A DNA stretch of 63,966 nt, filler included, from Basidiobolus ranarum (lineage: Eukaryota), in the NCBI GenBank assembly GCA_040143965.1. It is 10 parts of 10 records of this genome, joined end to end, with 100 filler letters (N's around TTAATTAATTAA, not from the genome) between each part and the next. Parts side by side here need not be neighbours in the genome. Positions count along the whole stretch, not along the records: positions 51,289 to 57,580 come from JASJQH010008226.1; 9 more parts are not named here. One strand, 5' to 3'. Below, piece by piece: positions 6,326 to 62,803 of this stretch. Both the position numbers and the translations under genes were made by a program. The notes under the pieces were generated by a model. That model was not told the origin of the DNA, did no database searches, and saw nothing but the letters and a program-made list of their open reading frames with translations. The stretch's first letter is position 1. Each line of letters opens with the position of its first letter.

Positions 6326-6425
6326 NNNNNNNNNNNNNNNNNNNNNNNNNNNNNNNNNNNNNNNNNNNNTTAATTAATTAANNNNNNNNNNNNNNNNNNN
6401 NNNNNNNNNNNNNNNNNNNNNNNNN
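6326..6425. other. Artificial 100-nt contig linker (N44-TTAATTAATTAA-N44). Identical linkers at 12746-12845, 19163-19262, 25578-25677, 31991-32090, 38396-38495, 44796-44895, 51189-51288 and 57581-57680
   Basis: Identical structure at all nine gaps, a six-frame stop core, and flanking segments sorted by decreasing length. Confidence 0.98.
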
Positions 6426-12745: not shown

Positions 12746-14905
12746 NNNNNNNNNNNNNNNNNNNNNNNNNNNNNNNNNNNNNNNNNNNNTTAATTAATTA
12801 ANNNNNNNNNNNNNNNNNNNNNNNNNNNNNNNNNNNNNNNNNNNNCATCCTTGTTTGAGACGGGGTTTAAGACATCCATCAAATACTGAGCAAAGACAAC
12901 ATTGAACGCAACAAACTTCTATAGATTAAGTGCCAACAGCATTCTTATCTATCCTGGCTGTATTGATGGCTACAGATGCATGAGTGTGGATTTCTTTCCT
13001 TTCTCCATCATGTGTGACTCTTGATTTTAGAACTGCGAAACAAAACCCAGATATCACATGCATATTTAGTGTGGATGAATCCAAAATTAGAATCAATAAT
13101 GCAATCCTGGGAATACTTGAATCCACCCTCAAAAGTGTATTAGTAGGATGTCTAAAAATGTGCGGGAAATATATATATATATGTATATATGCTTAGCTCA
13201 GAGTTAAAAAAAATATACTGGCTAATTGCAGAAACCAGGCTACGCTTTCACAACAATGAATAGGTTGTATTGAAATCCAATGCACATGATTCGACTTCAT
13301 GTAGCTGTACCTTCCAGAATGTGGAACCAAGTAAAGTGTCCAAATATGAAACCATGTCTACTTCTGTTGTATTAAGAATTTTGGGCATACTCCATTCCAA
13401 GTACTATTTGGAGTGAGAATTTTAGTCAATGTTGTGAGTATTGGATGCTTGTCATTCTGTATCTACAAAGCAATAATTGAAGGGTTTATAATCACTGTTA
13501 GAGATATCCAAATAGTACACAATGTTTTGCGGAACTATCTAGCAAGAAACAATGACCTACTATCTCATACTTTTCAGAAGATACTAAACTGTCATCATGT
13601 CCGACAATTGGTGAAAGTGTCTTCCCAATCCACCAAGCATCGTGTCTGAATATACAATCGCCTCAGGTCTAAAACTTTGCCGCTACAACTGTTCATTTGG
13701 TGCGAAGTATAGGGCATTATTTAAGGAAGACATGTGTGCGCCATTTATTGTCTCATTGAGCAAAATCTCTTCATTTCGTTTCAACCATGTGTGTCAAGTC
13801 AAAAAATAGGTGCTTGAAGAGAATGAGAAATTCTTTTATATCTGCACACTTGCATTTGGAATGCTGAATACAAAATTGTAAAACATATTAACTTTAATAA
13901 TACGCCATATGCTCCCATTCACAATGTTGAAATGCGATCAGTTGATTCTCCATTATACTCAGTCACTTAAAATAATGCTCTGTAAGATTTGTAAAATGGA
14001 AGTTACACTAACGGATCCGTTCAAAACACTCCAATATATTTGGCAACGAACCTCCACCAACATCCTATTCCTTGTGACGCAGACATCCCCACTAAGTTAA
14101 CCAACCAATTAGTTATTTGCCTGGAATAATTGGAAAAGGCACTATGAGTCGTGTGTTTTTAATTGGACTAATGAGCATTCGGTCTAATGAAATCCAACTA
14201 TAAGTAGGGGATATAGCCTTCTTGTTGCTGCTCTTTATGCTTTAACTTTTGTTTTCTCATAAATAGGCGGATGTAGACGGTTTTGGACATCCTCAAAGAA
14301 ATTTTACCTTAAGGAATAGAAATGCTGGAAAATTCTTTTTAAATTTAGCCCTGAACAATATATTTACAATCCTGCTTCATTGTGGTTGACCTCATTAAAG
14401 CGGTTGTGTCTGCTCTTTCGCTTCAGTTAGAAACGTGACTGCAAACGGCAATGGACTGTAGGCCCTTTAATAATATGATCACAGCATTCTGATGGATAAA
14501 AGATTGGCCATCAGAATGCCAATCTTGTGACCCAGAGCATGTGAGCCAATTGATGGTATTTATTAGGGTGTAGAGGGGCAATGAAAGATTATCTTCGAAT
14601 TGATTGATTTCCATCTACCCCAAAATTTGATTCACACTTCCTGAACCAAGTATATTTCTTGAGAAATCGCCCTAAAGGGTACAAATCATCATCATTCACG
14701 CAGCCTACTATGCAATCATATCAGATGTGTCAAAATAATGCGGAGAAGTAAACTAAAGATGTAGGATAAGTTCATTTCATTCCATCTAAATCTAAAATCT
14801 TGATCTGTTGGTGCGACCACATTTGCAATATATAAAACCAATCGGCTTATATGGCCTCCTTGTGCCTTGAATCGACACTGACTTTTCCTTCTCGCATAAT
14901 ATACT

Positions 14906-17555: not shown

Positions 17556-18775
17556 ATGAGTGATATAGCTGAAAGAATAGCTGTTGCTAGAAGGGAGGCG
17601 GAGCAGCTCAAAGAGAAAATCAGGCAAAAGAAGGATAACTTAGCCGATACATCACGTAAGAGGTCTACCTTTGGCCTCGTTGAAAATAGCGTACACCATT
17701 CTTATTTTGATTTTATAATATAGTGAAAAATGTCGCGGCGGAACTTGAGCCACTTCCTAGAATTGTCATGAAAGTTCGACGAACGCTTAAAGGTCATTTG
17801 GCCAAGATTTACGCCATGCAGTGGGCCAATGATGAACGACATTTAGTTTCGGCCTCGCAAGACGGAAAACTGATCGTTTGGGACGCATACACCACCAACA
17901 AGATTCACGCCATTCCACTGCGTTCTTCCTGGGTTATGACTTGTGCTTACGCGCCATCAGGAAACTTTGTAGCATGTGGTGGACTGGATAATATCTGTTC
18001 GATTTATAATTTGAAGACTAAAGAAGGCTCAGTGAAGGTGGCTAGAGAGTTAAGCGCGCATACTGGTTATTTATCTTGTTGCAGATTCCTCAGTGATCGC
18101 CAGATTTTAACTAGTTCTGGAGATATGTCTTGTATGCTCTGGGATATTGATGCTGGTGTAAAGTTGATGGACTTTGTAGATCATACCGGAGATGTGATGA
18201 GGTAATATTTGGGAATCATTTTGAAGTGTAAATCTTTGGCTTACATTTCATAAAAGTTTGTCTCTAGCTCCGGAGAAGAACATCTTTGTATCTGGTGCCT
18301 GCGACGCCACTGCTAAAGTATGGGACATTCGCACAGGAAAATGTGTGCAAACCTTTTCTGGACATGAATCTGACATTAATGCCGTCCAATTCTTCCCCAA
18401 CGGGGATGCCTTTGGTACTGGCTCGGATGATACTACATGCAGACTGTTTGATTTAAGAGCCGATCGTGAGTTGAGTCAATATGCACACGACAACATCTTG
18501 TGCGGGATTACCTCGGTAGGATTTTCTGCCTCTGGTAGACTTTTATTTGCGGGTTATGATGATTTCAATTGTAATGTTTGGGACACCATGAGAGGAGATA
18601 GAGTAGGAGTCTTGGCCGCACACGAAAACCGAGTCAGTTGCCTCGGTGTATCTGCTGATGGAATGGCCTTGTGTACCGGTAGTTGGGACAGTTTACTGAA
18701 GGTAATCCATGGATTTGGTAGTGTTCTCTCGATAACCCCATCTAATCCTTTTCATTTCATCAGATTTGGGCTTAA
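17556..18775 (+). CDS. GPB1: Heterotrimeric G-protein beta subunit (WD40); exons 17556-17655, 17724-18201, 18257-18701, 18764-18775
   Basis: [59 protein letters not shown] and C-terminal [11 protein letters not shown]. Confidence 0.97.
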
Positions 18776-19262
18776 CTCTCAATGCCAATTGTTGGCAACT
18801 ATCTCCCAGCTTTCCTCATACATATAACAATATACACTGTTCCCGCCCCATATATAATCTGTAGCTTAAGAACCCCACCCTTTATCTTTTTATACATTTC
18901 TCGCGCTTGTCTGCGTCTACGCCCACATATATTCCATTCTTTTACATTGATTTCTCTTTGGTAAATTTTCATTTGTTTGTTAACCGTTTGTCACACTACA
19001 TCCTGTCTGTCTACTACTAGCATTACTCCCACTTTAAGTGTCTTTTCTATTGCCACCATCGGTGACTCTGACTATATGACGAATACTTGGATCCCACTTA
19101 CAAATACAACCAATCTTTTCAAGCTTTGAGGGTATTTTTCATGGTTTTTTGTGGTAGGAGGTNNNNNNNNNNNNNNNNNNNNNNNNNNNNNNNNNNNNNN
19201 NNNNNNTTAATTAATTAANNNNNNNNNNNNNNNNNNNNNNNNNNNNNNNNNNNNNNNNNNNN

Positions 19263-23481: not shown

Positions 23482-25063
23482 TTATAAATTGTTATCTGCA
23501 TTCTTCCGAGATGTTAGCTCCTCCAGGCTTCTGCCCTTGGTCTCTTGAATAAAAATGAGGGTGCCCACAAATCCAATTGTACTGCAACCGGCAAAAATAA
23601 GGAAAACGTAGCCATGCATAGCTTCCATGAGACTTGGGAAAATTAGACCGATAGTGAAATTCGAGGTCCAATTCATTGTCAGGGCCATACTCGAAGTGAT
23701 CGAGACGGCATTAGTAGGCATCAACTCGGTAATAATAAGAGCCGGAATGGGACCAAAGCCAATCGCGTAGAAAGTAACATATATCATGACTGGAAAATAG
23801 AAAATAATATGTTAGAGAAATACCTTCTAGCCATGAGTATATAAAGAAACACATACTTCCTGCTACTATTAATCCATTGCTGTGTGCTTGAAGACCAACA
23901 CACATAAGAATGCAGAAGATACATAATCCAGCACTGGATATCAGCAACAAAGCCTTCCGCCCTACGCGATCAATCAACACAACGGAGGCAACGGTAATTG
24001 CAGCATTTAGACATCCGACGCAAAGAGTAATATATCTGGCATTGTCTCCATAGATACTAGTAAAGATCGAAGTAGAGTAGTACATAACACCATTAATTCC
24101 GGACCATTGTTGAATAACTCCAAGACTAATGCAAATAAAAAAGTTCCTTCTACATCCTGAGTCTCGGATAACCTCGAAAAGGCCGAGTTTCTTTGGAAGA
24201 TGCTTACTAGACTCGCGGGCTTGAACTATCTCTTGATACTCAACCTCAACATCATATCCTTTCCTTAATTTGAGCAATGCCAATCTGGCTTCTTCGTTAC
24301 TACCTGTAGAAACAAGATAGCGAGGGGTCTCAACACAAAAAGGCAGTAGACACGCTTGAAGAAGGCCAAAGGCCCCAGGAAGTGCAATCAAAACTCTCCA
24401 TCCAACAGGTGTAGACATACCCAGACTCATGCATTCAACAACTACAATGCCCATAGTAGTACAAAACTGATTGATGGCACCGAGAGTTCCTCGAGTCTTG
24501 ATGGGAGCGATTTCACCAATATAAGTAGGTAAAACGACAGCACCATATCCGCATCCAAAACCGATGAGGAGACGACCACAGATCCACATGGGTATGTTGA
24601 TAGAGCAAGCGATTAAGATCCCACCAAAAATACTAAAGAAGTTGTTTACTAACATGGCATTACGACGACCAAGTTTTTCTTGTGCATGGCCAGCCGTGAT
24701 ACAGCCAAAAATACCACCTAGCGCATGACTTCCTACGGCAAATCCCCATAGCCAAGAATCCATCGAATAGCAGTAAGGAAAGATTCCATTCAGCTTGAGA
24801 TCAGTTTCGTGGCAGTTACGAATTGCTTTGGAGGCTGGTAGAAAAATTGTAAGTTTTCTGCAGGTATAAAGGTAATACTCGAGTGAAATAAAATGGGACT
24901 TACTAATATTGGTTGAGGAAGTATCATAACCACTGCCGAATTTCACTATGCATGCAGTTAATACGCAGAACATGATGTAAGGAGAGTAGGTAATGCTTTT
25001 TGAGTCTTGTAGATCCGCCTTTTTTCCATGTTCTCCAAGAACGGCCTTTTCGATTAACTTCAT
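23482..25063 (-). CDS. MFS sugar porter (GLUT/SLC2-like), three exons (introns ~24903-24835 and ~23856-23790)
   Basis: KLGRR, GRLLIGFGCG, YIGEIAPIKTRGTLG, VETPRYL, QQWSGINGVMYYSTSIF, IDRVGRK, GFGPIP and ETKGRSLEE, with about 12 hydrophobic segments. Confidence 0.93.
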
Positions 25064-25677
25064 TGAAAATTGAGTTTGTGCAACGATATGAAAAGCGATA
25101 TCCAATGATTGCAAGATTTTCTTTAAGGAATACTGGTTGTATCCAAGAAGATGGTACTTTGATGCAGTAGCAATGGGCAAGTCCAGGATATTTATTCAAA
25201 TAATGATATAGAGATGAATGTGCAACATCCCTGCGAAGTATTACCATTTCAATTAGCAACCTAGTCCAACACCTCTTGTTCACTGGTATCTTTGCTCCGC
25301 AAATAGAAAGGAAAGTTTGCAAGATCAAAACACCTTTGAATGTTGCCCAAATGAGGAAATTATTCACCTAAAGATTTACCGTCTCCGCGCCAATAAAGTA
25401 CTTAACCCAGAATTGGGGCCTACCGAGCGTGCTATTAGGTTGTCAAGACTACGTAGCGTCTGATCTTCAATAGAGATACAAAATAATGTATCTCGGAATT
25501 CCACCAATTCAAATCAGAGCAAGATGCGAATACATTTACTGCCATAGATGATGAGCTAAGTACCTGCAGTTGAAATANNNNNNNNNNNNNNNNNNNNNNN
25601 NNNNNNNNNNNNNNNNNNNNNTTAATTAATTAANNNNNNNNNNNNNNNNNNNNNNNNNNNNNNNNNNNNNNNNNNNN

Positions 25678-29719: not shown

Positions 29720-31201
29720 CTAGTTACTACTGTTAAGGTCGAGAGAATTGTTATACACCCAGGCACCATTGTCGCATGCTTTGTTGGCTTTTGTGTTTCC
29801 TTCCACAGGGTCACTAACAAAATGAAATAGCTGTAGATTGAATTCTTCACCCTTGTTTGTACGCTCTTTCACAAGGAGGCGCTGAGCGTTTTCAACCTCA
29901 TTTTTGTAATTGGTTGCTTCTCCGTAAGCTTGCCTTTGAATAGCTTCAGCGACCTTTTCCCAAACTTTTCTGGATTCGTTGGCATTTTGCTCCTCGATAG
30001 GGGCTACAATGTATTTGGCTGGAGGATTGGTACTGGTATTGAGAAAGATTTCGGATTTGCCTGTGGCAGTATTTGTGATAGTCGATTCGGCCATCCATTT
30101 GCCATCCACTTTGTAAAGAGTATTCTCTGGCTCATCTTTGTGATAAATGTTGCCAATAAACTTATGGTATTTTCCACCAAACCAGGGCTTTCCGAGAAAG
30201 TCAAACTCTGTGACATACCCATTGGAACATTCAATACTAGTAGGACCCACAATTTCGATGAATGGATTTCCAGTTATAAGAGACCTAATGTAAAGATTAG
30301 GAAAACTAACGACATAGGTGTCGTCGCCTTTGGTATGACGAACTGTTGCTCTACCGGGTTGAATAATCTAATGAAGAGCTCGTTCAATATACATTATCGA
30401 TAAAATATGATCAATCTTTAGAGTCTTACCTGAACAGATGTACCCTTGAATTTAGATTTTTGACCAACTATGTATGGAGTGTTAGAATGTCAATTATGGT
30501 TCAAATAGTATTAATAAAGTTAAATCCCTACAATGTCCGTTGATATAAACTCCAGCTTTTTTGTTTTCGATATAGAAAGCGGAAATCGGAGGATGATGAC
30601 TTACTATAGAGGATGACTTTAGTTTTCCAACACTAGTCGGTTAGAGGAGGATTAGAGACTAACCTTGTTCACAGACTAAATTAGCTTCACCACAGCCATT
30701 AACATCATCCCATTTACAGAAGAATTGCTCCCCGAGGATGGGATTGAATGGTTTTTTTCCAGAAGAACCGACGCATCCGGCAAAATAACTACCATATAAC
30801 GTAGATATAAACCAACGAGCAACAGCGACCATACGTTCTAAAATAAATGTAAGTAAGACAACCGCAAGATATACATCTCATTTTGAATATATGTACCAGC
30901 AGGATCTTCCGGCTCTGAAATAGCAGCAACTAGTTCTGGGTGGTCACCCCAGTAAGTACTGGATAGAAGTAGATTTGTTAGTTTTCAAAAAGAAATCACT
31001 GGAGGTCTTGTAATTGAACAGAGTAACCAACCTATACTCTAACAGAGAAACGCCGTTCAACAGGAAAGAAGGGCAAGTAAGAGCAGATAGATCTCCAGTG
31101 AATGAAGCAAGATCTTTCAAAAATGACAGAAACACATTTTTATGTTGAGGAGCAATGGTGGAATCAGCTTTACTTTCGTTTTTGTTGGTTTTCCCACCCA
31201 T
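29720..31201 (-). CDS. KES1: Oxysterol-binding protein, short ORD-only Kes1/Osh4 type, multi-exon
   Basis: FLKDLASFTGDLSALTCPSFLL, KKPFNPILGEQF, EQ|VSHHPPISAF, FLGKPWFGG and ESRKVWEKVAEAI..ATNYKNEVENAQR, with several GT-AG introns between 31031 and 30400. Confidence 0.92.
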
Positions 31202-31990: not shown

Positions 31991-32090
31991 NNNNNNNNNN
32001 NNNNNNNNNNNNNNNNNNNNNNNNNNNNNNNNNNTTAATTAATTAANNNNNNNNNNNNNNNNNNNNNNNNNNNNNNNNNNNNNNNNNNNN

Positions 32091-34770: not shown

Positions 34771-37700
34771 TGATAAAAGTGTTTAGGGGATTTTGAAATG
34801 TCTTGAACAAGATTTGGATTCATGAATCAGAGACTTGAGTTTTAGTGAATTGAATGTATCCAATATATAGTTACTATGAAATAGAACTATTTTACAGGCA
34901 TAGATGAATACAAACAAGCCTGCTAAGCATGGGTGAAAATTTCAAATGATTTGGACCAGATTTGAGAATATGGTGAAAATTGGCAAAAGTGATATAATAG
35001 AAATTTCTATCAATTTGAGCAATAAACACACATTTTGAATGACAGAATTGAGTACTAAATAATTAGATTACAAATAAACTAACTACTCAATCATGAGCTG
35101 CTATTTACCTAATTTGAACATTCCCACTCAACTTATTATTTTGTATTTCTCTTAAACCTAACTTGTATCATAATAATTCAAATTGTGCTTTAGCCAAAGG
35201 TTTGGTTAAGATGTCAGCAATCATTTCTTCAGTAGGGCAATAGACAAGTTCAATTATATCATTCTCTATTGCTTCTCTAACAAAAGGAAGCCCAATAGCT
35301 ATTTGTGTTGCTCTAGCATGAAATGTTGGGTTTTTAGCTAATGAAATAAAGCTTTGAAGATCTTCAAATACAGTAATAGCACATTTTTGCATTTATCCTA
35401 AGCCTGTATATAACTTCCTTAATCATATAGCTTCTTGTGTAGTAGCAGAGGCAGCCATATACTCCGCTTCTGTAGTGAAAGTGCTACTATTGGTTCCTTT
35501 TTACAATCCCAAATTAAGGCTCCACTACCATAGAGAAAAGTGTACCCAGTGTTTGATCTTCTATCATCAAGGCTTCTTCCTCAGTCTGCCTCACTGTAGC
35601 CTTCAAAAGTTTGTGCATCAGGAGTGCCAGAGTGTTCCAGAGCTAGATCTACAATTCCTCTCAAATATCTGAATATTAAATTTATTGCAGTTTTGTGCTC
35701 AGAGCCTAAATTCTGGAGATATTGGCAGGCAGTTCCCACTGCCACAGCAGTGTCTGGATGTGTTCCAACCATTGTATGCATTAAACTACCCACTATAGAT
35801 TGATATGGGAACTACTGGTTTTGATTTGAGTCATTTTGGGCCAAATTAGATGTAATTTTGATCAATTTCACACTGGGATCCATTGATGCTGATACAGGCT
35901 TGCTGTTCTTCATGTTGTAGTGTTTTAGAATATCTAGGATGTGCCTAGACTAATTCAGCATGAATTTATTATTCCAGTTGTTCTGATGCAAATACTATAA
36001 TCTGTCATGCATTTTTGGAATTCTGGTGATTCCAAATAGGCATCTATCTTGTTGTACTATGTCCTGGGTGCTTGCTTGAGTCTGTATAGCAGTTTTTGCA
36101 GCCTACAGACCATTACAGGGTGTTTTGGGTCAACAAATCCATCTTTTTGCTCCATATAGATGTCCTGTAGATTTCCATTCAGAGAGGCTATTTTTACATC
36201 CCTTTGATGTTAATCACAATTATGGATGGGTGAGAGTGCCAGGATTGATGAGATGGAGCTAAACTTAGCTACTGGAGCAACACTTTCATGTTAATTAACT
36301 CCTGGTGTCTGGAAAAAACCTTTTGCAACTAATCTTGCTTTGTATATTCCTACGGTTCCGTCAGCTTGGTTTTTGACTTCATAGACCCATTTGCAACCTG
36401 TTGGCTTCTCCTTGATGGTAGAGGAATCAAACCCTATTCTATTGTCCTGAAGTGAAGAAAACTCATCAGACTTTGCTCTTTCCCTTATTTTTGATTCTGG
36501 ACTTTCCAGAGCCTGATCTAGAGTATGTGGCTTGTAACATAATGCTGCATAAGCATATACATCATCATTGGAGGTGTACAACTAGTTTTTTAGCTTATTT
36601 CTCCTTCTGGATGATCTTCTAGGCTCTGAATCATCCTCTGATATATTGGGGTTAGAATTTTGGTTGAATAGAGCTCAGATACAGCTGGAATTGGTCAGAC
36701 ACTTCCTGAATAGTGCTGATGGTGTTTTCTGGATTGAGAACTGGGTTTTGAGGTAGAAAATATGCTTTTTCATTGAAAATCACTTCTTTGTACTGAATCA
36801 ACTTCTGATTGCTGGTATGAAACACTCTAGAGGCCACAGATCCATCACAGTAACAAGGAAATATGCATTTTTTGCATTTGGGCTCCAAATTAGAGCAGTT
36901 TTGAGCTGGAATTAGGCAATATGCTGTGCAACCAAAGATCCTGAGATGACTCACACTTGGTTTTGATGCATCTAGGGCTTCAAATGGAGTACAATCTTGT
37001 AGCAATTTTGTGGGGGATGTGTTTTTGATATAGATTGCAGTGGAGAAAGATACAGTGGAGTCAGATTCAGCCCAATATTGGTAATCTATCTTTTGATCAT
37101 ATAAAATTGATGTTGCCATCTCCACTATGGTCCTATGAGCAGGTTCTCTGGCTCCATTTTGCTGTGGAGTATAAGGTATTGTAGTTTGTTGCTTAATTCC
37201 ATGTTTAGAACAAAAAGTGGTAAAGTCTTTAGAGCAGTATTATCCAGCAATTATCACCTCTGAGTACCCTTATTGTTTGTGCTGATTCTTTCTCTACCAT
37301 TGCTTTGTAATACCTGAACACAGCTAAGGCTTCAGATTTTGATTTGAGAAATATTGCCCAAATGTCTTTTTTTGTCATCAATGAGGGTCATAAAGTGCCT
37401 TTTCCCACCTAGTAAGAGGTTCTTCATGAGCTCACAGAGATCAAAATGAATCAGGGCAAGATTCTGCGTAGATTTGATCACTCCAGGGCTTGAAAATGGC
37501 TGTGTGTGATGTTTTCCATATGTGCAGCCTTCACACAGATCCAATTTAGTGATATTTTCAATTTCTAAGCCTGAAACAAACTGATTTTGGATCAGTTGGG
37601 CCAGTTTTTGTTCCCCAATGTGGCCAAATCCTCAATGCCATGTTTGACGGCTTAATTCACTGGTTTGGCCAAGTTAGCATGCTCAGAATGCAATTTGTTG

Positions 37701-38395: not shown

Positions 38396-39369
38396 NNNNN
38401 NNNNNNNNNNNNNNNNNNNNNNNNNNNNNNNNNNNNNNNTTAATTAATTAANNNNNNNNNNNNNNNNNNNNNNNNNNNNNNNNNNNNNNNNNNNNGGAAA
38501 AGTTGGACTATTTTGAGCGGACGAAAGTCTCTGTTGCCAGGAACACAGATACTACTTGGGATCATTAAGTGAGGGTTACTCAAGAGATTATTTGCTAGGT
38601 GTATTCAACCAATATCAGTTACTACAAATCAAAGTCGCTCACAAAAACTGACTTGGTAGCTGAGCTCAATAGCAATGGGTGATTTTGCGGAATGTATGCC
38701 CATTCTTTATAGCGTACTATTGCCATATTCGAGTGTGTTTTTCACAACGAGCCTTTTCATCTGATTGAAATATATACAATCCATCTCTAGCAAGTCATGA
38801 AGAAAGATGGTCACCAGAAATGCAAATAGGCAAAGCTTCGCAGCATTCCACACTAACTAAAGAGTGCAATGAACAAGTTTAAAGAGGAAGGTGATTGCTT
38901 CACCTATAGCCAGCAAAGTGAATGCCAGTGTGACCAAATCTTGATTGAGACCGTACTTGTGGAATAAGGGCTGGGGCCTAGAAGTCACTTCTTCCACAGG
39001 CACCTGTGCCAAATATTAGATTAATTTATGGTCATTGTGCCAATCTACTTTTCTCACCACAGCAGAACATTGGGCTGACCAGGCCCAGTTCATGTTATGA
39101 ATGGATTGAAATGAGGAGCATTTACATGTCCTCTACGTTCCAAGTCAGCTTTTCATTAACTTCATTAACCTGGACTGCAAATCAATACATACTCCACTAA
39201 ATTAAAGTAAATAAATATTCCATACATTAATGTCACTCGACACAAAGACATATTGGATAGTGAAGTAACTTCAGCATTTGATGGTCAGCTAATTATACTC
39301 TATAAGGAGTTACATCTAAATTCTTACAGATATGTGCATTGGATTGAATTATTAAGGGTTTGAGTAGAC

Positions 39370-44729: not shown

Positions 44730-44895
44730 GGTAAACAATATTTGATGGTCTAGCTGTTTGCATCCATAGACTTTATATGTATCTCCATCTCAAACNNNNN
44801 NNNNNNNNNNNNNNNNNNNNNNNNNNNNNNNNNNNNNNNTTAATTAATTAANNNNNNNNNNNNNNNNNNNNNNNNNNNNNNNNNNNNNNNNNNNN

Positions 44896-50137: not shown

Positions 50138-51637
50138 ATTAAGATAGATTGCCTTGAATTTGGGGAGACTTTTTTTCACTTGTTATCATTCTCCTTCCTA
50201 CAATTACACAGCCCTACTCGACCGCTTCACTAGGCTTTGGAGTATCCCTCGAATCAAGGCTTCCCCTACACCTACGGAGGTTCTCCATTGTGAACGGTCT
50301 CACGAGTGTTTTTACAGTGATACAGTCACTTGTCCCCTATCCTATGTATTCCTCAGTGCTGATATTCCAGAAATCGCATCCTGTCCTCCCCCCTCCACCC
50401 CCAATGAAAAACCATAGTATATTGGAAAGATATATTCAATATTCGGTTGGGAATGTTTTCCAAATCCCCCTTTTTTGGTCAAGAATTTATTGGATTTTGT
50501 AAAACAATTGATATATCAGGTGGATACAACTTGATTGTTAACTTGAAAGATTTTTTAATAATATCCCAACACCCATCTCTTGCTACCTTACCTATTTATC
50601 AGTGTTAGAAGTCATAAGAAAACGAGTGAAGTGAAGGGGAGAAATAGACCTAGTATTGTATTGCTATGAAGATATCCTGAATCCTTCAGCTACCCTACCA
50701 CCCAACATTGAGAGCGGTGTTTACAAAATTCGGAAAATCTTCCTACTAAAACTTAAGATATGAAAGTTTTCCGGATAATTTCCTTCCTTATCCGCCATAT
50801 TTAATTTGGGGGAGAGGGTGAGATTCGGGTGTCTCCCCTCCCTCCAGTATTACTTAACTGTTACCAAATATCACCTGACTTGAAATGTTTCTTCCTATTA
50901 CATCTGTACCAACTATTTGTTCTAAATGTGGGTGTATGTGGTTTCAACAATTCTTTGGAAAGCAGTTGTGGTGATATATATTCTGGAGGTACTACACGTA
51001 TGTCATCGATTCGTTCCAAATTAAATGAACTTGCTACTGGAGAGGAGGAATGAGGCGTTAGCTTGGACTTCATCATGTGGTATTTGGTAGATTTTTGTAA
51101 GGCCAAATCATGCATAGCTGACATTCACCAACCAACTGGTCGCGTCAAGTCAGGCACCCCACATCTAGAGCAGGATTCGAATGAGATANNNNNNNNNNNN
51201 NNNNNNNNNNNNNNNNNNNNNNNNNNNNNNNNTTAATTAATTAANNNNNNNNNNNNNNNNNNNNNNNNNNNNNNNNNNNNNNNNNNNNATCACAATATGG
51301 CTGTATCTGTCTATTTACTTATTATCTGTTGACTGAACCACAGATATCAGCTTTGCACTGGATAAGTTAATATGTGGGAGCAATATTTCCTTCATATTTA
51401 TCTATAAGCATCTGACAAGAATGCTTTCATATTTCTCATAGCAATCTTTGGGAGCATTCTTTTCAAGCAAGTTTTCATTACCTATTGCTGTTAATTAGTG
51501 TTGTTTCCAATTTTTGAGTGGGGGTTTTTCACCTTCAGTATGATACATACTTGCTTTTGATCAAGCTATAAAAATTCAGCCTAGATTATAAGCTACAATG
51601 GACCCTAGCTTTAATCTTCTCTTTGAGTATGATTTTG

Positions 51638-52096
51638 TTAATTTGCCTGATGGATACATATATATACTCTTCTCCAGCAATACCCTTTGTGACAGCCACA
51701 AATATCCTTTCCACCTTTCTGTTTTGTGACTCCACAGGTCAGGTCACTCTTTTCCCAAGAGTCAATAACATGGTTCAGACGATCAAGAGCATTGAAGAAT
51801 ATATCTACTCCATCAGACGCGTCTCGCTTTTCCACCTTATGGCCTGGTTGGCCTAAACTGGTGGTGAATTGCTGTATCATCTTCACGCAATCTTTAAACC
51901 TGGCTTCCTTACTAACTGGAACGAAAGTCAATGTAGCCGGGAATTCTTCACTGCACTCTTTAACATTTCTGTATAACTCCACATACTCCGGGGCAGCAGT
52001 AATCTCGGGATCGTAACGATCTACAGGGCCAGCAAAGGCAGATGCAAGTATAGAGGCCATGGCAATACTAGTCAAGAGGTTTTGGAAGAAATGCAT
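51638..52096 (-). CDS. Secreted protein with a Kex2-like KR site and a Cys-rich C-terminus; 3' end uncertain
   Basis: Signal peptide MHFFQNLLTSIAMASILASAFA, VEKR, and C-terminal CGVTKQKGGKDICGCHKGYCWRR. TATAAAA lies ~45 nt upstream. Confidence 0.7.
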   Translation of the reverse strand: MHFFQNLLTSIAMASILASAFAGPVDRYDPEITAAPEYVELYRNVKECSEEFPATLTFVPVSKEARFKDCVKMIQQFTTSLGQPGHKVEKRDASDGVDIFFNALDRLNHVIDSWEKSDLTCGVTKQKGGKDICGCHKGYCWRRVYICIHQAN

Positions 52097-53610
52097 TTCA
52101 GTTGGTTTATGTTGACTGTGTAGTCAATTCGCGTATTTTATAGATATAACAAGGGCAGGAACATATTGTTAAGCTGGGCTAAAAGAATACTTTTTGAGAG
52201 TTTCTCTGTCACGTAACCCAACCACTCTTTCTAGAAACCTCAGTCATATGAGTACTTGCACTCGTCTGCACCAATTAGTTATATTGCAAGCGATTTGTCA
52301 TACACTTCACAATGTAAGTGGAAATATTTGCCCATTGATATGCTTTCTCAATTGACCTCGGTCTAGACTTATGTGTTGTTCATAAGGACACCAGGCACAC
52401 TTTGGTATTTAGGTTAAGCCATGGACAGTCTAAGATATTATCCCAGAGTTACCTCCACTACTGGTACTATTTAGGACTTTAATACTGATAGTGTCCATTG
52501 GTTTCTGCATGTACTAGTAAAACATTCCCACCTATACGTTAAAAGTTTGAAGCGACGTACATCTTTCCAATTTCGAATAGTAGTTCTGGGATAATAATAC
52601 AGGGGTCATAGCATTTACAAAGCCTATACCCCAAATTAGGGAAACAAGCAAAATAGGAAAGACAATCAGGCTGAGATAAACATATATGATGTTATATTGA
52701 TATAATTCGTAATAAATTCATATGATTTGATAATCCATTAAGGTCATAATATCTCAATTAATTCCATCGTTCCAATAGTCAATAAGTGGATTTGGAGCGT
52801 TTGAAAAAATGTTGATGAAAAAGATTGAAGGTTCCTTTCTGATTGACTCGTAAAAACATTTGGAGCCCCATGTAGAACCATCATACGTGATACCACCATT
52901 TATCTTGAATTCGCGGACTAGGGTCTGATCATGTATACCTATCTAGAGATTGGTGTGATATTCTTGAATTCATTATTGCGGGAGTTACTATTACTCCATT
53001 TATTGTAAAGGTGACAACAACGCCTAAACACTTTAATGATGTAAGAAGCTAATACGTATTGCACTTTAGATCACCGCTTTGGACTTTCTCAGTTTAGAAT
53101 CAGCATGGCTCCCTAGGCTTTGCCATTGTATCTGGTGAGCTTTCTCCAAATGAGAGAACTAAGATTGCGAATATATGAGCCATTAGTTAATAGAAGGACG
53201 AGTGAGCATAAATTTAAAAGCAAAGGATATTCATAAGAGCCATTTTCGTTGTGAAATTACTTCCTCATTTTCCAAGTTGTGCTTGTTTGTGGATCACCAA
53301 GCTTACTGCTGGTCCAAATCATGGATATAAAGACACGTTGTTGTCCAAACTTTGCTTCCAAAACTCCCTTCTTAGTACCTATTATTCCAGCTTTCTGTCC
53401 TGTTGTTCATATGGTATATCCTACCTTTCTTTCCTTTTACTTACCACCTTCCCCCTAAACAGTATCTTTACATCCACAGAACTTGTATATATTGGTAGTA
53501 TAGTTAAGTATAGATATGGCCCCATCCTGTCACAATATATTAGGAGATTGTTGTCCTGACTGTCACTTTGTTTAGATTAGTATATAAGCTAAACAAAGTT
53601 CACACTACTT

Positions 53611-54330
53611 GGTGCTTTCCATCCGTCTAAGAGAGGCAGCGGCAACAAGAGACTCCGCACCACTATTACCCATGAGCCTAACCATTAGCCAAGCAAATTT
53701 ACAAACAATCTATTGTCTACCACCTAGGTACTATACAAACTTCACAATAGCAGCGAAGAAAACGACTGCTGGTAAGACGGTATAGACAAAAATACTGATG
53801 TCGGCGATATTGTAGCTAGTTATACATGCCAAGCCAGATTTGGAGAAGTGGAGATGAGTGGAGTACATGTTTAATACCCAACTGAAAATATCGTATCCGA
53901 CAGATGTCTCAAGGATAAACAAACCGAGGAGGAATGGTTACAGCATACCAACAACAGCAGTCCTCCATGAAATATTTTGTGATTGTCGGATGTTGCATAT
54001 AGTAGCACAATAAATACAACGGGACCAAGGAATGATCTTAGCCTGTTTAGGCGACTGCTACCTCCTTTTTGAACGGGAAGAACAAGAGTAACAGATACAA
54101 TCAATGTAACCGGAAGTAGGACACCAAAGATGAAACGGATTTTTTCGGGAATCATCGAGAAACATTCCCAGGCTTGGAAAGCACTCAGGTAGTCACGTGG
54201 TAAAACATGAGTTTCAATGAAACAAAAGTTCGAAGAAACGAAAGGACTAGGTGGCAACGATGGTTTGATCGAGGTAGTGGATGCCACCCAATAAAACTGT
54301 AGCAAATGATGATAAGGTTTGACCTAAGAC
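53611..54330 (-). pseudogene. Concentrative nucleoside transporter (CNT/SLC28) pseudogene fragment
   Basis: LRSFLGPVVFIVLLYATSDNHK (frameshift) WRTAVVGML*PFLLGLFILETSVGYDIFSW ... VLPAVVFFAAIVKFV*YLGG..*IVCKFAWLMVRLMGNSGAESLVAAAS. These are CNT signature segments with stops, and the C-terminal half is absent. Confidence 0.85.
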
Positions 54331-55002
54331 CAACCCTATCAGTAGCCCCATCAGTAGCCCTATCAGTGTTTTGCATCCCATCGCTGTGTAGATGGGTGTA
54401 TATACATATATATATTGCATGAATATTGACCATCTTCAAAAGTTTATGCTTCCTAATAAGCTTCAGTTGGAAGTATTAATATCGGAGTAAAATGGACGAA
54501 AATCTTAATGCGATAACCTACTTGTAAAGACATAGGAGATACTACAGCAAATGAAAGAGTAAACTCTAAGGCTGCTAGTGGAATTTATATATTTATGTTT
54601 AGGTAGCTGCCAGAATATATTACTTATGCCACTAGTTACCCCGCTAAGAAACATGCACCTATGTTTCAATCGATCACATCTGTCAAGAGTTGTGTTAAGT
54701 TCCATGAATCAAGCGTAAATGATTGGGTCACTCATATGTCAACATAGAATATAAATTGATGATGGCATTTGCATGAACATCACTAAACCTATGCACCACT
54801 ACCACTAATTTCACTGGTTCAGCGCTTAAGGATTGAGTGGTAAAAAGGATTCTCTGCGAAAAAATGTATGGCTTGGGCTTCATTGTAACATAATTCATGC
54901 ATTAGCTATGAGTGGACGATTGTGTCGTCAATTGGCGTATGACTGAATGAGTAAGAAACTAGCATGTGATATAGATATGCTGTTGCAAGGCTATAAGAGG
55001 AC

Positions 55003-55181
55003 TATAAATAACATATGGTATTTAGTTGTATCGATCATTCATCTTCAGCATCTACCACTCTACATCACAACCAGACATCTGAACCAGTAGTGAACACTAC
55101 AACCTAAATAGGTAAGGAACTTTATTAACGTCATACACTGAAAGGGAGACATAAAACTAACTATATCTATACATCTTTTAG
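55003..55181 (+). promoter_or_regulatory. TATA box (55003-55010) and 5'-UTR intron (55112-55181) of the NRPS-like gene
   Basis: TATAAATA, then a GTAAG donor, a CTAAC branch point at 55157 and a TTTTAG acceptor 13 nt before the ATG. Confidence 0.6.
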
Positions 55182-55194
55182 TACATTATACAAC

Positions 55195-57580
55195 ATGTCC
55201 CAAGAAAGCACCAACATGAATTTACTACAAGTCCTCGTTAATACAGCCAAGAACTATCCAACCCATGGCCTTTACTACATCAACAATTCGGACGATATTG
55301 CAAATCCTTCATTCGACAGCTACTCCAGTCTTCTTACGCGGGCATATAGCATCGGGAAGGAGCTACGTGTACTCACACAAAACAACCCTAGCCAAATAGT
55401 TGTGCTGTACTTTGACAATCATCAGGATACAATTGATCACTTTTGGGGATCGTTAGCCGCTGGTCTTCTACCATGTGTTCTTGGGGCATTGAAAGGTGAT
55501 GATGAGAAAAAGGAAATGGAACTCTCACATCTCGATACTCTTTTCAATAAGCCTATCTTTCTTTGTCGCCAAAAAGATTGCGATGAACTCACTTCTTTGG
55601 CCCCAAATCTGAATGTTCAACCCATCGACAGTTTCAAAGCACAGGAAAGCCTTGATGCTAATACAGATTTTTCTGAACTTGAGTCACTGAATTTCAATAG
55701 TCAAAGTACGACGAACGAGGTGGCTGTTCTGTTACTAACCTCTGGCTCTACAGGCAACTCAAAAGCTGTTGAACACACTGATGCAAACGTACTTGTTGCA
55801 GCCAAGTATAAGGTTGACGATTATCAGCTTGAATCCACAGACACCATATTAAATTGGGTTGGATGTGACCATGTGGCTGGGTTAATTGAGAATCACATCA
55901 CACCTATTGTAGCAGGAGCAAATCAAGTTCAAGTAGCTGCATCAGTGATCACCCTGGAGCCATTGACACTTTTAGACATTGCTGAAGTATTCGAAGTAGG
56001 CTATACTTTTGCTCCCAACTTTTTATTAGCTAACATCGAGAAAGATCTGAGAACCAAGCTTCAGGCGACTTCACAAGTACCACTCTACAATTTATCCAAG
56101 CTGAAGCGCATCAACTCTGGAGGAGAGGCCAATTTGGTAGATTTAGGGAATCAACTCTTACTCACATTGAAAGAAGCAAAGTCCAAGTTTACTGGGATCA
56201 TAGCGCCAGGCTTTGGAATGACGGAGACTTGCGCTGGTTGTATCTATAACAAACAGTTTCCATTCAGTGATACTGGGAAGGAATTTGGTACGTTAGGGCA
56301 TCCTTCCAGCGAAGTATGTTTGCGAATTGTCGATGATGATGATCAAATATTGCCAGCTGGCTCATGCGGGAATCTGCAAATATCGTGCCCTCAGCTATTC
56401 AAGGGCTATTATAACAATCCTGAGGCTAATGAACAAGCTTTCACTAAGGATGGCTGGTTCAGAACAGGGGATACAGCTAATCTTGCCAATGGGGCCCTGG
56501 AACTTGTTGGAAGAACCAAGGATAGTATTATTCTTCGTGGTGTAAACTATTACGGCAATGAACTTGAGGCTGCATTACAAAATATAGACGGGATTGTCCC
56601 TTCATTCGTCGCAGTTTGCCCTATTCGGCCAAAGGGCTCTCAAACCGAACAAGTTGCCGTTTTCTATCTTCCTTCATTCTCACTATCCGATGAAGAAGCC
56701 CTTCTTCGTACTCATTCCAGTATTCAACAAAAACTGATTCAGTTTTGCTCTCAAGCACCTCACGTAATATTGCCACTCTCCAAAAACATCTTGACTAAAA
56801 ATTCATTGGGCAAGTTGTCAAGAGGAAAGCTACGTCAACGATATGAAAAAGGGGAATTCAATGAATTCCTTAAGATTGTTGAACAAGTCGTCCAAACAAG
56901 AAAGGCTTTGAAATACAAGAAGCCAACCTCTGATACCGAAATCACTTTGGCTTCCTTCTTGTGTAAAATATTTGATGTACCTTCGGATGATATGTGTGTA
57001 GAAGAGAACTTCTTTAATATGGGAGGCTCGTCTCTAGAAGTCGTACAGTAAGTTGATTTTCTTTAACCGATGATTTTATTCATGTATTAAGTGGGTTTCT
57101 ATTGTATAGATACAAAGCAAGAATTATTGAACACTTCAATTTAGCTAAGGTAAGACTAGAGAGGTACTACGGAAGTTCCATGATTTTATTACTAATTCAT
57201 ATTTTCCATTACAGAATTGGCCAGTCATCAGAATTATGCAACATCCAACTATTCGAGCACTTGCAACACATTTGGATGAATCCAAATCGAATGCCACGGG
57301 AGGTTTGCCTAACCAGAACTATGATCCAGTTGTCCCCTTACAAGTAACAGGGTCAGGCGTGCCCATATTCTTTGTCCATCCTGGTGTAGGTGAGGTCCTT
57401 ATCTTCGTCAACTTGGCCAAGTATTTTGTGAATGAACGTCCATTCTACGCATTGAGAGCTCGAGGATTTGATGAAAATCAAACTTACTTTGAGTCAATGG
57501 AAGAGATGGCCGATATTTATACTGCAGCCATTCGTAAAACTCAACCGGAAGGTCCCTACGCTGTAGCTGGATATTCTTAC
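55195..57580 (+). CDS. Monomodular NRPS-like enzyme (A-T-TE, no C domain) of the quinone/furanone synthetase type; exons 55195-57047, 57110-57149, 57215->57580; truncated in the TE domain by the gap
   Basis: A domain: LLTSGSTGNSKAV, WVGCDHVAGL, FAPNFLL, NSGGEAN, PGFGMTETCAG, GWFRTGD and KNSLGKLSR. T domain: FFNMGGSSL. TE domain: PIFFVHPGVGEVLIFVNLAKYF..RPFYALRARGF..GPYAVAGYSY. Confidence 0.95.
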
Positions 57581-57799
57581 NNNNNNNNNNNNNNNNNNNN
57601 NNNNNNNNNNNNNNNNNNNNNNNNTTAATTAATTAANNNNNNNNNNNNNNNNNNNNNNNNNNNNNNNNNNNNNNNNNNNNATTTCAGCTATACAAGCAAC
57701 TGATTGGCCTTAGACTTTGTGTTCAGATGCAGTCACCATACTCCATATATTCCTCTTTGGGAATTACTGCTTGTATCACAAGTCACCAGACTTTCAACA

Positions 57800-58331
57800 G
57801 TTTTCACCTATTGATTTATTGAGTAGAAAGTTGACATTTATAGTTTTGTCAAGTTGTAAACAAACTAACATGTAGCATATGTCAAGGAAGGTCCCAGGAA
57901 CATGTTTGCAAAGTTTGGGGCTTCTAGCGCAAGTTTGAAAAATCTATATATCTCAGGATTTCTAAGTAAATTCTGGTTGAGAATAATGGATAATATCTTA
58001 GTGAATCTTAAGATAACTAAGTACTATGCTATATATGACTATATAGGTGTTTAGGCAATGCTAATTTCAACACTAAGTTGGTATTAATATTCTAAGTAAA
58101 TTCCCCATGAAAACAGTGGATAATATCTTAGTGAGATATAAGATAACTAAGTACTAAGCTATATATGACTATATTGGAGCTTAGGCAATGCTAACTTCAA
58201 TACTAGCTTAGTACTCCCTGAATAAACTCAATATACTTACACTGGATGATATTCTAACACCAAGTAGAATGTACATTTCAAATGAGTAATTTCCATTGAA
58301 TACGGTAAGGTTTAGCAATGCTAATTTTGAC
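57800..58331 (-). mobile_element. Stack of partial Copia LTRs (LTR termini at 58072, ~58202 and ~58331)
   Basis: GCAATGCTAATTTCAACA-like termini occur three times, and the internal sequence matches the 19957-20304 LTR. Confidence 0.85.
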
Positions 58332-59056: not shown

Positions 59057-60382
59057 ATGTACAGTATGATGGCACACTCACTAAAGCTGAATGATGATGA
59101 AACGGTGGCTTTCAATTTCCTCTATCCCAGCTGGATGAAGGTTCCGGTTTCCATTCGGCCCGACGAAGATCACCTCAAGATAGCGATCACTGACTACTTG
59201 GCGGAGAACAGAGCCCTTGAGAATGCTCTTGGAGGTAATATTGCTGAGAAAAAGCCAGCTTTGCACTTTTCGCTACAACAAGGAGTAGAAAAGCAACCAT
59301 ACAATGCTGAGGAGCTTCGCGACAAAAGTTGCAGCATGGAATTCCATAGAACACTCATCTACTTGAAAATGGTTGGGCTGGACCCAATTCAGGACCTGAA
59401 GCCATTTGGTCTTGACGAAGAGTCAGTCTTCGATCCAACGTATCTAGCTGCAAACCTTCTTGTTACTCTACCATTAATTGCTGATTGTTTCCAAGTGACT
59501 CACACTGAGACTGAGCGATTTCCCAAGTATGGTCATGATATTGGATGCGTTGAGCGGCACCTAAACTACAATATTGGGATCAAAGATATGTCGACGAATT
59601 GGAAAAGCTACGATCTAGGAGGCCTTGTATACGAAATTCTTAAAACACTCCCTCCTGGCCACACCAGTACTAATGAACTGATAGCGCCGCTGAAGGATTT
59701 GAAGTCAATCACAGACAAGGATACATTTATTCATTATCTATCTAAAGTCACAGTGAACCAGTTGAAGAAAAAATCTCTACGCTTAAGTGAAAAGGCAGTA
59801 TTAGGGCTTCGGAAATCAATCCTCTGTGCCGCGAATAATCTTTTCAGAGAGAAATGCTTACTAGTGCCCTATCCAAATAATAGAACATTGGATTTGCTGT
59901 ACAATCGGAAAACTCTTCGTAACAACGTTATTGTCCATCCACCCACTCTCTGCCTAAACGATGCTCTCAGTGTGCACACAATGTTCCACAAGGCCATTGC
60001 TAGCAAAAAACTGAAGCTATATTCGGGTGGGCAGTTGCTATTTAAAGAAGATAACGGAGAATGCGCTATGCGACTTCCCACTCCAAATGACGTGAAAAGG
60101 GCTATTGCTAGAGAGGGACTCTGTACAGCTAACTCATATGACCTGCTTGTACTCGAAATAGGGGCCATTGAGTATGACCAAAGAATTCGTACTGGAGCTC
60201 CGTTCTCAAGTGTTCCTTATGAATACCTGGCCACTTGCAAAAAGTTGTTTAATGAATCTTGGATAGATGCCCTCATAGCGTTAAAACTCAAACGTCTTTT
60301 GACCGGCTACTTCAGTTTGGTAGGAGATACAGATATGAAGCAAGCTCATTGTCGTCGAATTATATATACTTCAGTCGATTAA
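59057..60382 (+). CDS. Intronless 441-aa protein of unknown function
   Basis: Long uninterrupted ORF in AT-rich DNA with a globular composition and normal CpG content. TATATAA lies at 59018-59024, and a diverged duplicate lies at 61797-62070. No family recognised. Confidence 0.8.
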   Translation: MYSMMAHSLKLNDDETVAFNFLYPSWMKVPVSIRPDEDHLKIAITDYLAENRALENALGGNIAEKKPALHFSLQQGVEKQPYNAEELRDKSCSMEFHRTLIYLKMVGLDPIQDLKPFGLDEESVFDPTYLAANLLVTLPLIADCFQVTHTETERFPKYGHDIGCVERHLNYNIGIKDMSTNWKSYDLGGLVYEILKTLPPGHTSTNELIAPLKDLKSITDKDTFIHYLSKVTVNQLKKKSLRLSEKAVLGLRKSILCAANNLFREKCLLVPYPNNRTLDLLYNRKTLRNNVIVHPPTLCLNDALSVHTMFHKAIASKKLKLYSGGQLLFKEDNGECAMRLPTPNDVKRAIAREGLCTANSYDLLVLEIGAIEYDQRIRTGAPFSSVPYEYLATCKKLFNESWIDALIALKLKRLLTGYFSLVGDTDMKQAHCRRIIYTSVD

Positions 60383-61796: not shown

Positions 61797-62070
61797 ATGA
61801 CCTGAAGCTAAAATATCCAGAATAGTATACATAGATAAGTGCTGACTATATCTAAGCAAGTTAAAACGTACATTAAGATGGCGCACCCACCACAGCTAAA
61901 TGACTATGTAACGACGACTTTCAACTTTCGTTGTGTCGGCTGATTGACGATTCCAATTTTCATTCAGCCTGACGAAGATCACTTCAAGGTAGCGACCACT
62001 AACTACTTGGCGGAGAACAGAGTCCTTGAGGATGGGAAAGCTACGATCTCGACAGTCAAAGAATTCGTAT
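61797..62070 (+). pseudogene. Decayed, internally deleted duplicate of the 59057..60382 gene
   Basis: 61797-62033 aligns to 58989-59225 (IQPDEDHFKVATTNYLAENRVLED vs IRPDEDHLKIAITDYLAENRALEN) with an in-frame TGA. It is followed by short blocks matching 59601-59616 and 60179-60191. Confidence 0.85.
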
Positions 62071-62803
62071 TAAAAGAACTATTTTCACAAGAACACTCTA
62101 GGTCTTGTTTGGAGATCGCAACCTTGTGGGCCATCATAATAACAAATATATTGGTTATCGCGGCAAAGAATAGGCTGTCCAAGCATTGGTTGGTACTTCT
62201 GCAAATACAAACCTGCGGCGGGACTCCAAAAGGCCTATAACACGCGTGGTTAAATTCTGCGCTCTAGTCTAGAAATGCCTCGATAGTGGACAAACAGATG
62301 AGGAAACTTTCAGCCACTATATATGTGTCGGATTGTGGATACTCATTTTACGTGAATTATTCCCTGATTCAATGGAAGCATGATTGAAATTGGAAATATT
62401 CTTATATAGGGTTAGGGCTATTAATCTACATGTTAGCGATTGGTGAGTTGACTTAGAGTGCAAACCTACCCTGAAATGACATCATATTCAATCTGCACTC
62501 AGCGCGTAAGCGCGTATCACTATACAGAGCGCAGTTCGAATAATCTGACATCTATGATGAGTACAAATTTAGAATTTCCTAAAGAAGTGATTTATATCAG
62601 TTGTACTTGCATATCACATGTTTTCCATTTTTAGGGCAGAGGCCGGAAAACTTTGTTATTATGCCAATCAATCTTCAGAGAAACCTTTCTATGCTACTAC
62701 AATGCAACTCACTCTGACCATGTGCTATTGGTAGTGCATGCTTGGTGAAATATTCGTATATGTTTCGCAGACTAAATATTTGTCCATCAAGTATTTCTTA
62801 ACG

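Follow-up and report, generated by a model that had tools for sequence, protein, structure and literature searches.

A probably native A-T-TE synthetase gene of Basidiobolus in a fungal clade of predicted aryl-pyruvate-dimerising enzymes

Introduction

How does a fungus outside the Dikarya come to carry a synthetase of the type that dimerises aromatic 2-oxo acids, was the gene taken over from bacteria, and what might its product be? These questions are raised by a gene that starts at position 55195 (plus strand) of the DNA studied here, a window of 63,966 bases that consists of ten contigs of ~6.3 kb. The gene encodes a nonribosomal peptide synthetase (NRPS)-like protein with adenylation (A), thiolation (T) and thioesterase (TE) domains in the order A-T-TE. 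Dikarya and a few bacteria are known to make terphenylquinones and related aryl-pyruvate dimers, which serve as pigments, shuttle redox equivalents and modulate bacterial biofilms (PMC10316625). An earlier note on this DNA had assigned the gene to the aryl-pyruvate type and had found its introns compatible with a horizontally acquired gene that is being domesticated. We arrive at a different view of its origin. With a probability of about 0.8, the gene is native to a species of Basidiobolus from the B. ranarum group, encodes a non-reducing three-domain A-T-TE NRPS-like synthetase, is one of several copies in the genus and has long been fungal instead of having come recently from bacteria.

Results

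The gene lies on a contig of 6,292 bases (51289..57580) that is bordered on both sides by the artificial linker N44-TTAATTAATTAA-N44; the gene call made from it, P0003, is on a contig of this length. Without any intron, exon 1 (55195..57047, plus strand) extends from the ATG through the entire A domain into the T domain. From the ATG at 55195 the frame runs uninterrupted for 617 codons and two bases (1,853 bases; translation P0001), Pfam recognises AMP-binding in it (E 1.8e-30), and a single high-scoring segment pair in tblastn matches residues 1-626 of the B. ranarum protein P0004 over this exon. The start methionine aligns with residue 1 of the Basidiobolus homologues in the protein alignment. 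From sequence signals alone, a putative intron in the 5' untranslated region is placed at 55112..55181 (plus strand; GTAAGG...CTAAC...TTTTAG), with the ATG 13 bases downstream. At the end of exon 1 stands the motif G-G-S-S-L, the carrier motif of a T domain, with Ser613 (57031..57033, plus strand) as the predicted phosphopantetheine attachment site. The T domain of the window gene is recognised as a sequence motif; PF00550 is recorded in the database for the 95 %-identical P0008 and for P0004.

Two short introns interrupt the T domain, intron 1 of 62 bases (57048..57109, GTAAGT..TAG) and intron 2 of 65 bases (57150..57214, GTAAGA..CAG), both on the plus strand. They enclose a micro-exon of 40 bases (exon 2; 57110..57149, plus strand), which supplies YKARIIEHFNLAK as well as the remainder of a Gln codon that intron 1 divides. 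Exon 3 (57215..57580, plus strand) supplies the remaining T domain and the first ~73 TE residues. The spliced peptide ...GGSSLEVVQ/YKARIIEHFNLAK/NWPVIRIM... is an exact match to the B. ranarum protein models P0008 and P0013, and because both carry it, the predicted splice model is supported by independent gene models. The arrangement described in the earlier note, an intron-free A domain with introns in the T domain, is what we find. The models of two B. meristosporus homologues, P0006 and P0007, diverge exactly at the micro-exon (alignment columns about 650-670): P0007 is without the 13 micro-exon residues and P0006 has unrelated residues there. Both models are probably mis-spliced at this point, which would explain why PF00550 is not recorded for either.

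Exon 3 (translation P0002) contains the N-terminal 73 residues of a Pfam Thioesterase domain (E 1.7e-16, profile positions 2-75 of 226), and 110 of 111 residues are identical to P0008. The contig ends inside the TE nucleophile motif G-Y-S-Y, the serine of which is encoded at 57575-57577. When the full-length paralogue P0004 (949 aa) is used as tblastn query, this locus is the sole match in the window and reaches residue 761; ~188 TE codons are absent because the contig ends at 57580. The broken TE half that the earlier note had named as a possible objection is a cut made by the assembly, not a lesion. In the alignment, P0004 and six other full-length relatives have G-Y-S-Y-G-G and the conserved G-x-H-Y-T-L-M. 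An exact 34-base scan of metagenome contigs for the 3' end gave no match, and a protein-guided scan gave 53 pattern matches, none of which was confirmed. Pfam finds no condensation domain in the window protein or in the nine upstream open reading frames (ORFs) of at least 60 aa. The order A-T-TE without a condensation domain, as proposed earlier, is therefore borne out by the Pfam AMP-binding and Thioesterase matches and the T-domain motif, with the TE visible to residue ~73.

A member of a multi-copy family might also be a decaying or inactive paralogue. Near-identical fragments and copies are present in B. ranarum (76-98 %), two fragments (P0313, P0314) at 88-89 % occur in the representative library, the 3' end of the window gene is unseen, and the B. 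ranarum model P0013 enters unrelated sequence past the T domain. However, translation and tblastn show zero stops and zero frameshifts over the 2,259 coding bases present, every conserved motif of the A domain is intact, and the serine of the T domain and the TE start likewise are intact and conserved. We regard decay of this copy as improbable.

The copies also identify the host. The closest proteins are from B. ranarum, namely the full-length P0004 (K7432_012544, 76 %), P0005 (84 %) and the fragments P0008 (95 %) and P0013 (98 %), followed by two proteins of B. meristosporus CBS 931.73, P0006 (67 %, labelled 'atromentin synthetase') and P0007 (66 %, labelled 'acetyl-CoA synthetase-like protein'). 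P0004, P0006 and P0007 have the A-T-TE architecture and the same D-H-V-A, N-S-G-G-E and TE motifs as the window gene, to which they are 66-76 % identical. They are distinct copies within the same genus, and their names are automatic annotation, not experimental. An exon of the housekeeping gene for isovaleryl-CoA dehydrogenase on another contig (9755-10663, plus strand) shares 98 % identity with B. ranarum and 97 % with B. meristosporus, with all remaining matches at or below 88 %. Basidiobolus belongs to the Basidiobolomycota, outside the Dikarya (NCBI taxonomy). The early-diverging host assumed in the earlier note is confirmed by the gene copies and the housekeeping gene, and the Dikarya host it had allowed for is not borne out.

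To which class the enzyme belongs can be read from the A domain. Seven multimodular synthetases provided 35 A domains with which the A3-A5 region was aligned. In the column of Asp235, the amine-binding residue of amino-acid-activating A domains, 30 of the 35 reference domains have D, three have V and two have S. The window protein has V227 there, within the motif D-H-V-A (residues 225-228; 55867..55878, plus strand), and the replacement of the Asp by Val that the earlier note had reported is correct. Val at code position 1 marks the activation of alpha-keto acids (PMC10316625, section 5), and by this rule Val together with the A-T-TE order points to the aryl-pyruvate class, in agreement with the earlier assignment. 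The nearest solved structures to the A domain are the McyG A-PCP (A and peptidyl carrier protein) structure 4r0m (E 9.8e-71) and 6ulw/6ulx (2.4e-63), followed by acyl-CoA-ligase-type adenylating enzymes (E 1e-20) and amino-acid-activating NRPS A domains (~3e-15). The McyG loading module and the 6ulw/6ulx A domain have the D-H-V-type A4 region in common with the window protein. McyG and 6ulw are parts of multimodular assembly lines without TE-mediated dimerisation, and 6ulw is a keto-acid-selecting module.

The specificity code V-A-E-F-S-G-G-A-C-K given in the earlier note is readable in the window in the same register. It is identical in nine of nine Boletales rows, and bacterial rows differ by Cys versus Ser alone. 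Since the code is nearly invariant across the family, we rejected it as substrate evidence; it is a marker of the family, not of the substrate. In the searchable literature the string was not found in print as a published code under any spelling tried.

More is to be learned from position 5 of the code in the usage of PMC10316625, which in the window protein is Asn307, directly before S-G-G-E (56113..56115, plus strand). This position is Asn in eight of nine rows of early-diverging fungi (Calcarisporiella has Thr) and in nine of nine Boletales rows, Ile or Val in all 12 bacterial or metagenome rows and Ile or Ala in all five Ascomycota rows. In section 11 of PMC10316625, Asn correlates with 4-hydroxyphenylpyruvate and Ile/Val with phenylpyruvate, a correlation probed by mutagenesis in which position-5 exchanges loosened the specificity without a full switch. 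On the strength of Asn307 we predict, with moderate confidence, 4-hydroxyphenylpyruvate as the substrate.

To place the gene among its relatives we searched beyond the genus. There the chytrids Spizellomyces 'palustris' and two Geranomyces species have the nearest proteins (43-45 %), together with Calcarisporiella thermophila (42 %); those of Boletales and bacteria come next, at 35-39 % identity to the window protein. A HMMER search of 1.84 billion representatives returned 95,423 matches at E <= 0.001 and 3,060 at 1e-30, and above the general family it ranked only the gene's own cluster, the two 88-89 % fragments and a Geranomyces representative. A profile built from eight Basidiobolus, Spizellomycetales and Calcarisporiella sequences found no further member; behind these eight the score falls from 1565 to 1147 bits.

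Five trees were calculated. Tree 1 is based on full-length sequences (45 rows, unrooted, mixture model, quick search), tree 2 on the A-domain region (63 rows, LG+G4, quick search, rooted on six A domains from multimodular proteins), tree 3 on the rows of tree 2 under the mixture model, tree 4 on 43 rows with a careful search and ultrafast bootstrap, and tree 5 on the T-TE region only (37 rows). Four of the five are short searches with support from the Shimodaira-Hasegawa-like approximate likelihood ratio test (SH-aLRT) only, the rows are best database matches and not a designed sample, and several rows in trees 1, 3 and 5 have a deviant composition and long branches. TdiA, MicA, AtrA, GreA, InvA and EchA are represented by database-labelled homologues; the named representatives include Phyllosticta, Sordaria, Cudoniella, Bogoriella, the Colletotrichum 'microperfuranone synthase' and a second Calcarisporiella protein.

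In all five trees the bacterial rows, together with those from metagenomes, fall into a single group without any fungal row (support in trees 1-5: 100; 99; 99; 100/99; 97). The fungal rows are the sister clade to the bacteria in the rooted A-domain trees 2-4 (90; 94; 97/94), and the T-TE tree has a fungal clade at 96 that takes in one long protist-labelled row. The node of the A-T-TE family that includes the window gene stands above the outgroup A domains with a support of 100 (trees 2-4). Basidiobolus and Spizellomycetales are grouped throughout (96; 99; 97; 100/97; 95), and both Calcarisporiella copies are the first fungal branches in the rooted A-domain trees. The A-domain trees show a trichotomy of Boletales, Ascomycota and the Basidiobolus/chytrid group, and the T-TE tree a polytomy, whereas the full-length tree unites the Basidiobolus/chytrid group with Boletales at 91. 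The A part and the T-TE part of the gene yield the same picture. A-T-TE homologues in transcriptome sets labelled Dracoamoeba jomungandri and Stephanopyxis turris (P0321, P0363/P0462, P0354) branch, in the A-domain trees, outside the clade that unites bacteria and fungi; these may be genuine genes of protists or contamination.

We can now turn to the idea that the gene was recently gained from bacteria and is being domesticated, with introns gained at its edges only. Over 1,853 bases no intron interrupts the A domain, bacterial homologues score near the Boletales ones (35-39 % identity), and for B. meristosporus CBS 931.73, PMC7466969 flags 22 of 30 core genes of the NRPS and NRPS-like types as candidate transfers from bacteria. 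The main text of that study has no occurrence of atromentin, quinone or an A-T-TE enzyme. The trees argue against such an import: the exclusive bacterial clade excludes the gene (99-100), the A part agrees with the T-TE part, and a tree constrained to join Basidiobolus with the bacteria is rejected (difference in log-likelihood, delta lnL, 104.9; p of the approximately unbiased test, p-AU, 0.0046). So do the chytrids and Calcarisporiella as nearest relatives outside the genus, at 42-45 %, and the gap in the profile scores. The median number of coding introns is two in native Basidiobolus genes and zero in transfer candidates, as reported in PMC7466969, and the window gene has two. Measured by what that study uses to recognise bacterium-derived genes, its nearest relatives are fungal and its introns not fewer than in native genes. 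Coding GC content and GC content at third codon positions (GC3) are 0.421/0.391 in exon 1 and 0.440/0.369 in exon 3, as in four host exons (0.409-0.441 / 0.347-0.398), but this is weak evidence because PMC7466969 saw no difference in composition for its transfer candidates either. A recent bacterial origin is not supported, and we consider it very improbable. The domestication proposed in the earlier note does not agree with these data, and the grouping with inherited orthologs that it had named as an objection is seen at the genus level, with copies in B. ranarum and B. meristosporus.

Several points weigh against the native and ancient fungal gene that we favour. When Basidiobolus and Spizellomycetales together are moved to the bacteria, the resulting tree is not formally rejected (delta lnL 57.0, p-AU 0.059), which also speaks for the bacterial import; this group was chosen after seeing the tree, and the test is lenient to our reading. 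The branch order within the fungal clade departs from the species tree, the trichotomy included. Among the searches made, clade members occur in only four early-diverging genera, while the housekeeping gene isovaleryl-CoA dehydrogenase is found in roughly 55-60 such genera in the same database (hand count), so vertical descent needs many losses. The Asp and His regions of the TE and the stop codon lie past the contig end. In the literature searched there are no biochemical data on any early-diverging member of the clade, and the Asn rule is correlative, position 5 being stated in PMC10316625 to be one that 'contributes to, but does not strictly determine' specificity.

The patchy occurrence in Basidiobolus, Spizellomycetales and Calcarisporiella might instead reflect transfer from fungus to fungus and not common ancestry with many losses. 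Beside the four genera among some 55-60, the grouping of Basidiobolus with chytrids (96-100), which runs against the species relationship, would fit such transfers. However, the branches are long, with 42-51 % identity between lineages, and every lineage is deeply separated, as old divergences would be. Two very divergent Calcarisporiella copies stand at the base of the fungal clade, and the nesting of a recipient within a donor group is not seen in the trees. Transfer among fungi is a possibility that we take seriously but consider unlikely on balance, and we prefer an old fungal gene.

The surroundings of the gene add little. None of the nine ORFs of at least 60 aa in the 3.9 kb upstream reaches the Pfam threshold for any family, and, as the earlier note had stated, neither an aminotransferase nor a tailoring gene is recognised in this stretch, which says little on a 6.3-kb contig without downstream sequence. 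Synthetase and aminotransferase are an essential clustered pair for atromentin according to bioRxiv 10.1101/2020.03.25.008516. The missing neighbours are not evidence of a stand-alone gene, because genes here have several exons, the contig has only 6.3 kb and its downstream side is lacking. Two ORFs on the minus strand of the same contig deserve mention. The one at 51638-52123 has a signal-peptide-like hydrophobic start, a Cys-rich end and no Pfam match and possibly encodes a small secreted protein. The hydrophobic ORF at 53871-54323, upstream of the gene, has a sub-threshold match to the cytidylyltransferase family PF01148 (E 0.032, 14.5 bits versus a cut-off of 24) and is perhaps one exon of a membrane enzyme.

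The contigs of the window are separated by nine linkers N44-TTAATTAATTAA-N44 (6326-6425, 12746-12845, 19163-19262, 25578-25677, 31991-32090, 38396-38495, 44796-44895, 51189-51288 and 57581-57680). Neighbours across a linker are not genomic neighbours, and findings that lean on them are unsafe because adjacency there is not genomic. The sequences before 51289 and after 57680 are other contigs of the same assembly and uninformative on gene neighbours. Other contigs carry ordinary host genes, a G-protein beta subunit (18225-18827, plus strand), a sugar transporter (23711-25195, minus strand) and an oxysterol-binding protein (29720-30367, minus strand). The ORF at 36652-37239 (minus strand) has a retroviral-polymerase SH3-like domain (PF25597, E 5.2e-20) and is a retrotransposon fragment. 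At the start of the contig that follows the gene in the window, a ~120-base unit is present in two direct copies at about 57950-58210 (by eye); it reads ..taagtaaattc..gataatatcttagtga..aagataactaagtacta..gctatatatgactatat..ttaggcaatgctaa.. An uninterrupted ORF of 441 aa at 59057-60382 (plus strand) has no Pfam match and a weak Atlas lead to clusters with a P-element-transposase-like GTP-binding insertion domain (score 0.86 versus the 0.9 level). A shorter ORF at 61944-62240 (plus strand), on the same contig and 2.9 kb downstream, repeats its N-terminal motif ..PDEDH..YLAENR.. (by eye), and the two possibly belong to a DNA-transposon family.

Discussion

Close to the window gene among the known systems are the atromentin or quinone synthetases of Boletales (Paxillus involutus P0067, Suillus luteus P0127, Serpula lacrymans P0167). 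They have the same A-T-TE order and share Val at position 1, Asn at position 5 and all ten code residues. The T-TE stretch is 60 % identical to the Paxillus involutus homologue, while the A domain reaches only 35-38 %. Unlike these synthetases, the window gene has a host outside the Dikarya, stands in a separate, long-branched clade with a trichotomy between the two, and is seen without a clustered aminotransferase on its short contig. Characterised enzymes of this group are AtrA, GreA, InvA and NPS3. The non-reducing NRPS-like enzymes of ascomycetes (Colletotrichum 'microperfuranone synthase' P0336; Phyllosticta, Sordaria, Cudoniella), to which TdiA, MicA and AcyN belong, have A-T-TE order, Val at position 1 and a place in the same fungal clade. 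They differ in forming a clade of their own (support 100) and in Ile or Ala at position 5 in five aligned rows. Bacterial A-T-TE enzymes (Ralstonia P0099; Streptomyces, Xenorhabdus, Burkholderia, Hyalangium) share the architecture and D-H-V-A at 35-39 % identity; in contrast to the window gene they form the sister clade (99-100), have Ile or Val at position 5, and have Ser for Cys in T-C-A-G-C. RalA and EchA are the bacterial A-T-TE counterparts named in PMC10316625.

The results above show the order of the domains, the motifs, the splice model, the host and the position in the tree. A mechanism may be carried over from the characterised family (PMC9047271), on which the substrate, product and activity proposed here depend. 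The A domain, which has no amine-binding Asp, would adenylate an aromatic 2-oxo acid, predicted from the position-5 Asn to be 4-hydroxyphenylpyruvate. The T domain would take up the acyl group on its phosphopantetheinyl arm at Ser613, one unit would be transferred to the TE serine, and the TE would condense two units into a dimer core. Candidates for this core are terphenylquinones, with atromentin as an example, furanones, butyrolactones and dioxolanones; the sequence does not say which. A product prediction from the T-TE tree failed, as this tree gave a polytomy with long branches.

There is a considerable chance, somewhat short of even, that the enzyme belongs to the same class and performs other chemistry, with phenylpyruvate or indole-3-pyruvate as substrate or with a core of the furanone, butyrolactone or dioxolanone type in place of the terphenylquinone. 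The core structure is set by the TE and not by the A domain, with no known sequence rule for it (PMC9047271). The TE is cut here at ~73 residues, the T-TE tree does not specifically join the early-diverging group to the Boletales quinone synthetases, and position 5 only contributes to specificity. On the other side, the position-5 Asn is common to 9/9 Boletales rows and is found in 0/12 bacterial or metagenome and 0/5 Ascomycota rows, identity to the Paxillus involutus homologue is 60 % in the T-TE stretch versus about 37 % in the A domain, and the full-length tree places the group with Boletales at 91.

Enzymes of this class are familiar from Dikarya and bacteria, and Basidiobolus homologues are already in public annotation. 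The literature searched, which excluded subscription journals, contains no characterised or discussed enzyme of the class from Basidiobolus or another fungus outside the Dikarya. 'Basidiobolus' and 'atromentin' co-occur in it only as unrelated mentions, and passages of a 2025 preprint on 19 genomes give cluster counts only. The statement in the earlier note that the lineage has no characterised example agrees with this; homologues from it are, however, already public under the label 'atromentin synthetase'. Of some interest is the added point that the family appears to form one fungal clade that reaches the chytrids. The practical value is modest, because the family is already in public annotation and its chemistry is predictable. 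With about 2.9 kb of coding sequence, a functional gene would be a small and concrete target in the secondary metabolism of early-diverging fungi, most of which is untested. As the window gene does not appear to be a bacterial import, the general claim of Basidiobolus NRPS-like genes as bacterial imports is tempered.

A more far-reaching scenario is speculative, and we would rather doubt it than rely on it: aryl-pyruvate-dimerising A-T-TE synthetases might have been present before chytrids, zygomycetes and Dikarya split, with few survivors outside the Dikarya, and the multi-copy set of Basidiobolus might make an atromentin-type redox-active terphenylquinone from 4-hydroxyphenylpyruvate. If true, this would be the first such pigment pathway outside the Dikarya, in a gut-dwelling fungus that lives among bacteria. 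If the enzyme is functional, the origin of this chemistry would, given the sisters in chytrids and Calcarisporiella, be pushed deep into the fungal tree.

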